A stretch of 64,000 bases of DNA from Escherichia coli (GTDB lineage: Bacteria > Pseudomonadota > Gammaproteobacteria > Enterobacterales > Enterobacteriaceae). Shown here piece by piece: positions 30,601 through 32,600 of the stretch (positions are counted from its first letter, which is position 1; each line of letters opens with the position of its first letter). Location of the stretch: assembly GCF_044324875.1 (NCBI RefSeq), contig NZ_CP172185.1. One strand, 5' to 3'. Position numbers: made by a program.

Positions 30601-32600
30601 AAAGCGGTGGTTGAAGGTCTGGAAGGATCGTTAAACGTACCGGTTAGCGAAACGGTGATGTGGACCAATAACATCACTTATATGCTGAAGAGTGAAAACA
30701 AAACCACGGGCGACCGTTTGTCGATCATCCCGGAGTATACGTTGAACTCAACGCTGAGCTGGCAGGCACGGGAAGATTTGTCGATGCAAACGACCTTCAC
30801 CTGGTACGGCAAGCAGCAGCCGAAGAAGTACAACTATAAAGGTCAGCCAGCGGTTGGACCGGAAACCAAAGAAATCAGCCCGTACAGCATTGTTGGCCTG
30901 AGCGCGACCTGGGATGTGACGAAGAATGTCAGTCTGACCGGCGGCGTGGACAACCTGTTCGACAAACGTTTGTGGCGTGCAGGTAATGCCCAGACCACGG
31001 GCGATCTGGCAGGAGCCAACTATATCGCCGGTGCCGGGGCGTATACCTATAACGAGCCGGGACGTACGTGGTATATGAGCATTAATACTCACTTCTGATG
31101 CTAACGTCAGATTGTTGACAAAGTGCGCGTAGTTCATGCCGGATGCGGCGTGAACGCCTTATCCGGCCTACAAAAATCTTGCCAATTCAATATATTGCAG
31201 GACCACGTAGGCCTGATAAGCGTAGCGCATCAGGCAGTTTTGCGTTTGTCATCAGTCTCTAATATGGTCGACATGAAAACTACGCATACCGCCCTCCCCT
31301 TTGCCGGACATACGCTGCATTTTGTTAAGTTCGATCCGGCGAGTTTTTGTGAGCAGGATTTACTCTGGCTGCCACACTACGCACAACTGCAACACGCTGG
31401 ACGTAAACGTAAAACAGAGCATTTAGCCGGACGGTTCGCTGCAGTTTATGCGCTGCGGGAATATGGCTATAAATGTGTGCCCGCAATCGGCGAGTTACGC
31501 CAACCTGTGTGGCCTGCGGAGGTATACGGCAGTATTAGCCACTGTGGGGCTACGGCATTAGCCGTGGTATCTCGTCAACCAATTGGCATTGATATCGAAG
31601 AGATTTTCTCTGTACAAACCGCAAGAGAATTGACAAACAACATTATTACACCAGCAGAACACGAGCGACTCGCAGAATGCGGTTTAACCTTTTCTCTGGC
31701 GCTGTCACTGGCATTTTCCGCCAAAGAGAGCGCATTTAAGGCAAGCAAGATACAGGCGGCTCAAGGTTTTCTGGATTATCAGATAATTAGCTGGAATAAA
31801 CAGCAGATCATCATTCGACTAGAGGATGAGCAGTTTGCTGTGCACTGGCAGATAAAAGAAAAAATAGTCATAACGCTGTGCCAACACGATTAATTGACAA
31901 CATCTGGTACGATTCGCCCGCAGCCATCACTGACCACGGGCGAAAGTGTAAAGCAGGTGCCTTACCATCCTGACCTGACAACCGGATATGCGGGGATTAC
32001 TCCCCGCACAACGGCTACTTCTTCGGTTCGTAAGCGAGAACAGCCTTAAACTCAATATTACGTTCCTTCACCGTAAACTCACACAGCGAGTCTCCGACCA
32101 GAAGCGTAAATCCCAGCACCGTCAAACACAGCACTATGACTGCCGCAAGGGCATATTTCGTCAGCATGTTTATATTGCCTCCATGCGAAGAAGGGACTAC
32201 CATCCAAATTGTTTGGGTTTGGAGTGGCAGCCCCAGGGTTGATAGAAATATCGTCCTGGGGCTTCATCTTTCCAGACCTCAGAGTTAACCTGAAACCGGA
32301 AAGCTTCAGGCACCCGCCGTTATCTTACCCTTCCTTAGCAAAATAGCTGTTTATTTATACAGTAAGTCCTGTTTCGGACTTCTCAATCCTCATTTGATCA
32401 ACTGAAGCTGAACCCGTTTTTTTCTGCATGCCTCAATCGTCAAAATTCTTCGCCACCAGTCCGCACTGCCATAACTTGTCATATTGCAAAATGTAGCCAA
32501 TTTGCTTCAGTCACCATCATCAAAAAAAGAAACATTCCAGAACTTCCGCATCTCGCCCAGTCGCTCCCACTTCTATACTGAATAGAAAACGCCAACATAA

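Follow-up and report, generated by a model that had tools for sequence, protein, structure and literature searches.

In the hok/sok family of type I toxin-antitoxin loci, the 5' end of the toxin mRNA (tac) pairs with a fold-back inhibition (fbi) element near its 3' end, an arrangement worked out on plasmid R1 by Gerdes and colleagues. The mechanism of R1 hok/sok was reportedly described by Thisted in 1994, by Franch and Gerdes in 1996, and by Franch, Gultyaev, and Gerdes in 1997. Escherichia coli K-12 carries hok loci on its chromosome, and their inactivation by insertion elements has been suggested (PMC12214031; PMC2654758; PMC7232551). We analyzed the hokE/sokE region of E. coli contig NZ_CP172185.1 (GCF_044324875.1) within a stretch of 64,000 nucleotides (nt), here called the window, to which all coordinates refer. 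Sequence comparisons and predicted RNA folds indicate that this region is very probably a complete hokE/sokE type I toxin-antitoxin locus in its ancestral state, that is, the locus of K-12 with the target site of the insertion sequence (IS) IS186 empty. IS-free hokE is already known: the locus, the IS186 insertion that disrupts it in K-12, and natural alleles without an IS are all present in the literature and in routine annotation.

The 50-amino-acid HokE translation from the window was found to have no difference from K-12 HokE and was matched by the Pfam model PF01848 (HOK_GEF) over model positions 1 to 42 of 42 (E = 9.2e-8). The NCBIfam HokA and Hok-family models matched HokE below their curated cutoffs (47.7 versus 89 and 38.9 versus 73, respectively), and its assignment to the family therefore relies on the Pfam and Rfam matches and on its identity to the K-12 protein. 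At the RNA level, the Rfam model RF01794 ("sok") matched positions 32159 to 32315 of the minus strand over its full length (1 to 157) with 80.3 bits, compared to a gathering score of 59. Because it covers the hok-sense strand from the mRNA 5' end up to where hok begins, the model in practice represents the hok mRNA leader. Its name is that of the sok antitoxin, while the strand it matches is opposite to that of MG1655 sokE, which makes it a naming trap for automated annotation. The 50-codon open reading frame (ORF) was intact in all 21 homologues fetched, which came from six genera, and the pairwise median ratio of nonsynonymous to synonymous substitution rates (dN/dS) of hokE was 0.17, a rough figure because RNA constraint acts on synonymous sites. 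On the other side of the spacer, the genomes closest to the window have a 621-nt EntD gene annotated at the same relative position.

The sequence was then compared with that of K-12. A first-pass annotation of the window had placed the end of entD at 31893 and the hokE stop at 32015, with 121 bp of IS-free sequence between them and a GGGG-ATTACT-CCCC motif at 31992 to 32005, and had stated that K-12 carries an IS186 between the same two genes. Every one of these coordinates was confirmed (the motif reads GGGGATTACTCCCC and the spacer extends from 31894 to 32014), and no IS186 terminal inverted repeat was found in the whole 64-kb window. The K-12 chromosome has the order entD, an IS4-like/IS421-family transposase gene, and hokE, and the MG1655 annotation identifies the element as IS186B/insL2. 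In the alignment to K-12 that had been suggested, IS186 fell exactly within the GGGG-N6-CCCC motif and was flanked by a 10- to 11-bp target duplication, GGATTACTCC, the junctions reading ...GCGGGGATTACTCC[C]ATAAGCGCTAACTTAAGGGTTG... and ...CAACCCTTAAGTTAGCGCTTAT[G]GGATTACTCCCCGCAC; the bases duplicated upon insertion correspond to about 31993 to 32004. After subtraction of 1349 bp (IS186 plus the target duplication), the K-12 sequence was identical to the window from 31894 to 32122, and up to 32330 it showed only four small differences: a synonymous one in the Leu15 codon (32123), one that affects the Sok tail and also its target (32214), and two in loops, of which one is an extra G (32253) and the other is at 32286. 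Disabling changes, which would speak against the first-pass proposal, were absent from the window when it was compared with K-12 and 23 homologues: tac, fbi, and sokE showed none, nor did the Shine-Dalgarno sequence, the start codon, or the coding sequence (CDS) of hokE.

The motif fits the preferred target of IS186, given as GGGG(N6/N7)CCCC in a passage of PMC6925257 that quotes this preference. It is the single occurrence of GGGG-N6/7-CCCC in the window, for which simple arithmetic gives approximately 2 expected by chance. The presence of the motif alone is thus not beyond chance; its being the exact IS186 insertion point of K-12 and of 1952 other complete genomes is.

Occupancy of this site was surveyed in 5426 complete E. 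coli genomes, a phylogenetically unbalanced collection, with a 75-bp empty-site probe across the hairpin (at least 80% covered) and with 45+45 probes (flank plus IS186) for each orientation of the element. At least one empty site was present in 3641 genomes (about two thirds), and a junction between the hokE flank and IS186 was present in 1952 (36%). The element was in the K-12 orientation (A) in 1730 genomes and in the opposite orientation (B) in 385. The exact layout of the window, with entD, a single IS-free hokE, and ybdK, was found in 1080. The absence of an IS to which the first-pass annotation drew attention is real, but it is not remarkable, being the majority state and already published (PMC7232551). 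IS186 has entered the hokE hairpin at least four independent times, at the same base, with matching duplications and in both orientations: in K-12, in each tandem copy of one sequence type 131 (ST131) strain from India, and, inverted, in strain 98218. In the ST131 double insertion, each copy carries its own duplication, distinguished by the ATTGCT and ATTACT loop variants. IS186A of K-12 is located in an equivalent hairpin, GGCGGGGATCACTCCCCGCC, downstream of hokC.

Many genomes carried hokE as a tandem pair of units 503 bp apart, for example O157:H7 (L002, 2498 to 3468) and ST131, and also the loci L007, L009, and L011; such pairs have been noted before for E. coli W and for adherent-invasive E. 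coli (AIEC) NRG857c (the latter in PMC7232551). Most of the differences between the tandem copies fall within the tail of Sok and the region it targets, equivalent to about 32205 to 32232 of the window, and through this divergence each SokE may be kept from acting on the mRNA of the other copy. In ST131, hokE is adjoined by short-chain dehydrogenase/reductase (SDR) oxidoreductases and an ATP-binding cassette (ABC) permease and not by entD, which suggests that something was inserted between entD and hokE in that lineage.

Folding of the mRNA indicated that the GGGG-N6-CCCC motif is more than an IS186 target, in that it is the DNA of a predicted, conserved stem-loop of the hok mRNA itself. This stem-loop starts 5 nt past the hokE stop codon and has a predicted energy of -18.5 kcal/mol (z = -6.1). 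In the fold of the RNA from 32315 to 31950, tac (nt 1 to 8) paired with fbi over 8 bp and closed the molecule in both the minimum free energy (MFE) and the centroid structures. The MFE of this full-length fold was -145.3 kcal/mol (z = -4.95), and the pairing probability of tac with fbi was 0.89 to 1.0. As modeled, this is the end-pairing described for the hok family. The first-pass annotation had supposed that the 3' fold-back element might be intact and had proposed folding the mRNA 3' end; fbi is indeed present, with a predicted pairing to the 5' end of the mRNA. The structural half of that annotation (insertion point, empty site, and fold-back) has thus stood, while its treatment of the hairpin as merely an IS target has not, the hairpin being also, on the folding and comparative evidence, a conserved part of the hok mRNA. 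When the RNA was cut just after the stem-loop, the 5' end was instead predicted to pair with GCCCC (nt 54 to 58). Because IS186 in K-12 splits the stem-loop and shifts fbi by 1349 nt, both the lock and the protective 3' end would be lost there; in the window, both are preserved. In the K-12 transcript that runs into IS186, no fbi-like sequence was found within 1 kb, and this transcript is predicted to take the internal tac pairing, as the truncated form does.

These folds were subjected to a comparative test. One genome per species was scanned, and 21 complete loci of the hokE type were obtained; Escherichia, with E. albertii, E. whittamii, and cryptic clades among its members, contributed some of them, and the rest came from Citrobacter, Klebsiella, Phytobacter, Pluralibacter, and Enterobacter. 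Two of these were left out of the alignment because a contig edge cut their 5' end; the alignment of 24 sequences consisted of the other 19, the window, and the tandem copies of O157:H7 and ST131. The full-length fold had 90.9% of its cells in standard pairs, compared to 36 to 44% when the 3' partners were slid by 1 to 3 columns, and 26 pairs with double changes, compared to 9 to 14 in the slid controls. The six pairs of the tac-fbi core were kept in at least 22 of the 24 sequences, the end pair alternating between G-U and G-C, and the fbi core GCACC was conserved in 22 to 24 of the 24, even though the 3' untranslated region around it varies. The stem-loop after the stop codon (helix 15) showed compensatory changes across genera. 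In the truncated fold, tac paired with GCCCC in all 24 sequences, and the Sok-target hairpin (helix 4) had 92% of its cells paired and four pairs with compensatory changes, as in O157 copy 1, in which UCCAAA/UUUGGA is replaced by UCCGAG/CUCGGA. Two fbi variants are possible natural tests of the fold-back lock: that of Klebsiella indica (GGGACC), in which one core pair is broken, and that of E. whittamii (GGTACC), which gives a G-U pair.

Beyond fbi, a distal hairpin at the edge of the locus had a predicted energy of -24.6 kcal/mol (z = -4.36) and no U-tract. It is part of the 503-bp hok unit that is duplicated in O157 and ST131 and has been kept in Escherichia and in two Citrobacter loci. Position 31936 within it is A in the window and in K-12 and G in most other strains. 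The positions of all features are given in Table 1.

Table 1. Features of the hokE/sokE region and its left border (window coordinates)
Feature	Position	Strand	Details
entD CDS	31273-31893	+	ORF end 31893, stop TAA at 31891-31893; left border of the spacer
Distal 14-bp hairpin	31913-31944	-	3' edge of the conserved hok unit, between entD and fbi; possible transcript end or stabilizer
fbi (fold-back inhibition) element	31955-31962	-	AGGCACCU on the mRNA, 24 nt beyond the stem-loop
3' stem-loop of hok mRNA	31987-32010	-	UGUGCGGGGA-GUAA-UCCCCGCAUA (GCGGGGA-GUAA-UCCCCGC); contains the IS186 target
hokE CDS	32015-32167	-	50 amino acids plus stop
mok-like frame	32015-32203	-	Upstream AUG 32203-32201, in frame into hokE, 62 amino acids
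Tyr46 codon	32030-32032	-	UAC followed by G (UACG); reported TadA A-to-I site, edited A at 32031, Tyr46 to Cys
Putative sokE promoter	32175-32203	+	-35 TTGCCT at 32175-32180, 17-nt spacer, -10 TACCAT at 32198-32203
hokE Shine-Dalgarno sequence	32178-32182	-	GGAGG; invariant in 24 homologues
Sok-target hairpin, processed mRNA	32196-32231	-	Forms in the truncated-mRNA fold; complementary to the SokE 5' tail
sokE antisense RNA	32211-32271	+	About 61 nt; mapped from MG1655 sokE b4835 (607733-607792)
tac element, mRNA 5' end	32308-32315	-	GGGUGCCU; 32315 corresponds to the first position of the Rfam model
Putative hokE -10 box	32322-32327	-	TAAGAT; missed by the consensus scan
LexA (SOS) box	32347-32362		CTGT-N8-ACAG, CTGTTTATTTATACAG; overlaps the -35 region of the putative hokE promoter

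The antisense RNA SokE was predicted to consist of an unpaired 5' tail and a GC-rich, terminator-like hairpin followed by UUCAUCUUU (-26.5 kcal/mol, z = -3.45). An Rfam match to mir-1990 within this region (19.8 bits versus a gathering score of 63) was rejected as a chance match to the terminator hairpin of SokE. The putative sokE promoter scored 8 of 12 against a scanner threshold of 9 of 12, its position fits the 5' end of MG1655 sokE, and its -10 box has the form TAnnAT in 24 of 24 homologues. Upstream of the Rfam-aligned mRNA start, the TAnnAT hexamer proposed as the hokE -10 box, located 6 nt upstream of GGGUGC, is conserved in six genera, and the sequence farther upstream diverges. The upstream AUG of the mok-like frame was present in 22 of 24 homologues, with AUA in the other two loci; the frame continued into hok in 13 homologues, while in 8 it ended at a UGA that overlaps the start codon of hok and in 1 it met an early stop after 5 codons. 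In the MG1655 annotation, mokC is an in-frame extension of hokC and mokE is not annotated. A mok function for this frame is plausible but unproven, because its AUG shares bases with the sokE -10 box. Another candidate for mokE, a 62-amino-acid ORF in a different frame beginning at AUG 32267, was rejected because this frame is not conserved, the K-12, O157, and ST131 copies differing from one another by one-base indels at 32253 and near 32213. A plus-strand ORF at 32136 to 32288, antisense to the hok leader, is called a "hypothetical protein" by PGAP; it has 50 amino acids here and 89 in the closest genome and is labeled "frameshifted" in K-12 and O157. Its frame shifts with the loop indels, and the ORF is therefore probably spurious.

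A candidate LexA-binding site was found just upstream. The pattern CTGT-N8-ACAG occurs only once in the window, as CTGTTTATTTATACAG, and its position was shared by all Escherichia copies of hokE, two Citrobacter loci, and one Phytobacter locus. It lies outside the coordinates of the first-pass annotation, which missed it, and as a sequence feature it is a more concrete basis for linking hokE to stress than that annotation had given. Beside the box, position 32364 is A in the window and G in K-12, which is nearer to the LexA consensus. The K-12 hokE box has been assigned a heterology index of 4.9, with hokE counted among the SOS genes (PMC11228462), and hokE has been described with a Lex box promoter among the SOS-linked toxin loci (PMC2826370; PMC8406316). 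Separately, the hokE mRNA is reported to be 40% edited in K-12, where TadA recodes Tyr46 to Cys (PMC12214031). The 15 nt around the editing site, GTTCTCGCTTACGAA, were invariant, synonymous positions included, in the 24 homologues except for one T-to-C change in Enterobacter, and in the local fold UACG was located in a 9-nt loop.

The locus can be fitted to the following scheme, several steps of which are drawn by analogy with R1. Transcription of hokE would start at about 32315 on the minus strand, and tac would pair with fbi and close the molecule; by analogy with R1, this locked full-length mRNA would be neither translated nor bound by Sok. Slow trimming of the 3' end back to the stem-loop would then remove fbi, again as in R1, after which the 5' end may pair with GCCCC and the Sok-target hairpin may form. 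The trimmed mRNA could be translated from the mok-like AUG and from the hokE AUG unless bound by SokE, which would lead to its decay. Cleavage of LexA would raise hokE transcription, and TadA editing of Tyr46 to Cys would tune HokE toxicity. If the R1 analogy holds, IS186 would have abolished the stable locked pool of hokE mRNA in K-12, which would agree with the inactivation by insertion elements suggested in the literature.

By every sequence and structure criterion applied, the locus is intact, and an identical HokE CDS has been reported to be toxic upon overexpression (bioRxiv 10.1101/2025.08.07.668861). According to a passage of the same preprint quoting Pedersen & Gerdes 1999, IS-free hokA, hokC, and hokB failed tests of post-segregational killing and rifampicin activation. 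Plasmid-style post-segregational killing, which the first-pass annotation had offered as one role, is not a meaningful role for chromosomal hokE. We also considered a wider, joint reading, in which the stem-loop that any hok mRNA requires shortly before fbi is at the same time, as DNA, a near-perfect IS186 target, so that each hok copy is a built-in hot spot open to repeated and independent hits, the intact hokE is an SOS-inducible, editing-tuned toxin, and recurrent capture by IS186 is a selected disarming of it. Taken as a whole this reading is speculative, and we consider it rather unlikely that all of its parts are correct. The observations that may be cited for a hot spot are the at least four events, the use of both orientations, the 36% of complete genomes with a junction, and the same position in hokC.

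Several results weigh against reading the region as a complete hokE/sokE locus that works by the scheme above. In a model of the transcript prolonged to 31905, the 5' end was predicted to form 5 bp with GUACC in competition with fbi (p of about 0.69), so that the fold-back prediction depends on the position of the 3' end, the mRNA ends used here being inferred ones; the competitor lies outside the conserved hok unit and was given less weight for that reason, but it is still a real caveat. The tac-fbi pairing has conservation and G-C/G-U switches in its favor, but only one true double change. Neither a sigma-70 promoter nor an intrinsic terminator reached the thresholds of a consensus scan of 31800 to 32650; the proposed promoters score at most 8 of 12, and they are based on cross-genus conservation and on the MG1655 sokE annotation. 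The assignment of mok is ambiguous because the mok-like AUG overlaps the sokE -10 box. In K-12, hokE expression changed 0.47-fold after azidothymidine (AZT) treatment and was not induced (PMC11228462), and deletion of hokE had no effect on persistence (PMC8406316); both results were obtained with the IS186-disrupted allele. Since all of the negative physiology comes from this split allele, the intact allele might be SOS-inducible.

Two alternatives concern the hairpin and the empty site. A strong GC-rich hairpin between convergent genes could be a terminator or generic palindrome of entD or hokE, its use by IS186 being incidental. This hairpin has no U-tract on either strand, the terminator scan was empty, and it travels with hok and not with entD; the internal copy of tandem hokE pairs also has it. 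Hairpins with covarying stems and mostly GNRA-type loops are also found in the hokE-type loci of other genera, and in K-12 hokC is followed by one of this kind, again at the same position; we regard the terminator explanation as very unlikely. The identity of the 121-bp spacer to the K-12 flanks (100%) makes a close relationship in this region possible, and with it a K-12-like ancestor that lost IS186 by precise excision. Precise excision of an IS that also removes one copy of the duplication is rare, and the window carries a single undisturbed target copy without a footprint. Uninterrupted hairpins in E. albertii, E. whittamii, the cryptic Escherichia clades, and five other genera, together with the frequency of the empty site among the E. 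coli genomes surveyed, make a secondary origin of the empty site extremely improbable.

A more serious alternative is that hokE is intact in sequence but is a physiologically inert relic with no part in killing or in the response to stress, in which the absence of IS186 has no functional consequence. The chromosomal hok loci of K-12 have been described as no longer addictive (PMC2654758), fluoroquinolone persistence was normal in a strain from which hokE and five further SOS toxins were missing (PMC8406316), and the presence of IS186 in more than a third of genomes (36%) implies that loss of the locus is tolerated. Set against this are the purifying selection on the toxin ORF, which is intact in six genera, the RNA helices that keep their pairing through compensatory changes, the LexA box conserved in every Escherichia copy, the toxicity reported for the identical CDS, and the use of the IS186-disrupted K-12 allele in the negative experiments. 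On balance an inert relic seems to us improbable but worth keeping in view, and the preferred reading is still that of a complete, ancestral hokE/sokE locus with an unoccupied IS186 target.

Whatever the role of hokE, the comparison calls for caution with published tests of its part in the SOS response and persistence, which used K-12, where IS186 has removed the 3' stem-loop and the predicted fold-back lock. The right background for studying hokE function would be IS-free strains or K-12 from which IS186 has been cleanly removed. The survey quantifies IS186 occupancy of the hokE hairpin and shows its repeated capture; as a discovery, the IS-free locus itself carries little weight.

Elsewhere in the window, matches at the Rfam gathering level were obtained for ES036/CssrF (31173 to 31214, plus strand, between fepA and entD) and STnc70 (2742 to 2835, minus strand). 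A tRNA-Arg(UCU) gene is located at 53767 to 53843 on the minus strand, approximately 21.6 kb from hokE. This distance is much shorter than in K-12, which suggests that the prophage adjoining the tRNA gene in K-12 is absent or shorter here.

Among the described systems, tisB/istR-1, dinQ/agrB, and symE/symR resemble hokE in that the toxin promoter carries a LexA box and the antitoxin is an RNA, and they are listed together with it (PMC2826370, PMC8406316). They differ in having toxins of unrelated families and other RNA regulatory designs, and in K-12 no induction of hokE by the SOS response was observed (PMC11228462). Plasmid R1 hok/sok (parB) is closer: it shares a Hok/Gef toxin, a cis-antisense Sok directed against the leader, the predicted pairing of tac with fbi, a stem-loop that precedes fbi, and a full-length fold that is replaced by another in the truncated mRNA. 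Unlike R1, the hokE locus of the window is chromosomal and carries a LexA box; its leader is shorter, with the hok AUG at nt 149, the mok-like frame is in phase with hok, and the toxin has Tyr and not Cys at position 46, where Cys depends on RNA editing (PMC12214031).

The K-12 hokC/mokC/sokC (gef) locus with IS186A (insL1) repeats the layout of the window downstream of the toxin gene, in which the stop codon is followed by a hairpin, GGCGGGGA-UCAC-UCCCCGCC, approximately 45 nt, and fbi (GCACCC). The IS186 copy of this locus likewise lies within the equivalent hairpin, and mokC is an in-frame extension, like the 62-amino-acid frame of the window; hokC differs in being a separate paralogue at another chromosomal site and in being disrupted by an IS. 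K-12 MG1655 hokE/sokE (b4415/b4835) with IS186B (insL2) is the same locus, between entD and ybdK, and shares with the window HokE, the 121-bp spacer, the core of the LexA box, and the position of sokE. It differs by the 1349 extra bp inside the 3' stem-loop, which part the CDS from fbi, and by four further differences. Finally, hok-2.1/hok-2.2 of AIEC NRG857c (PMC7232551) and the loci of O157:H7 and ST131 resemble the window in having IS-free hokE with intact hairpins; they carry two copies 503 bp apart, whereas the window carries a single copy adjoining entD.

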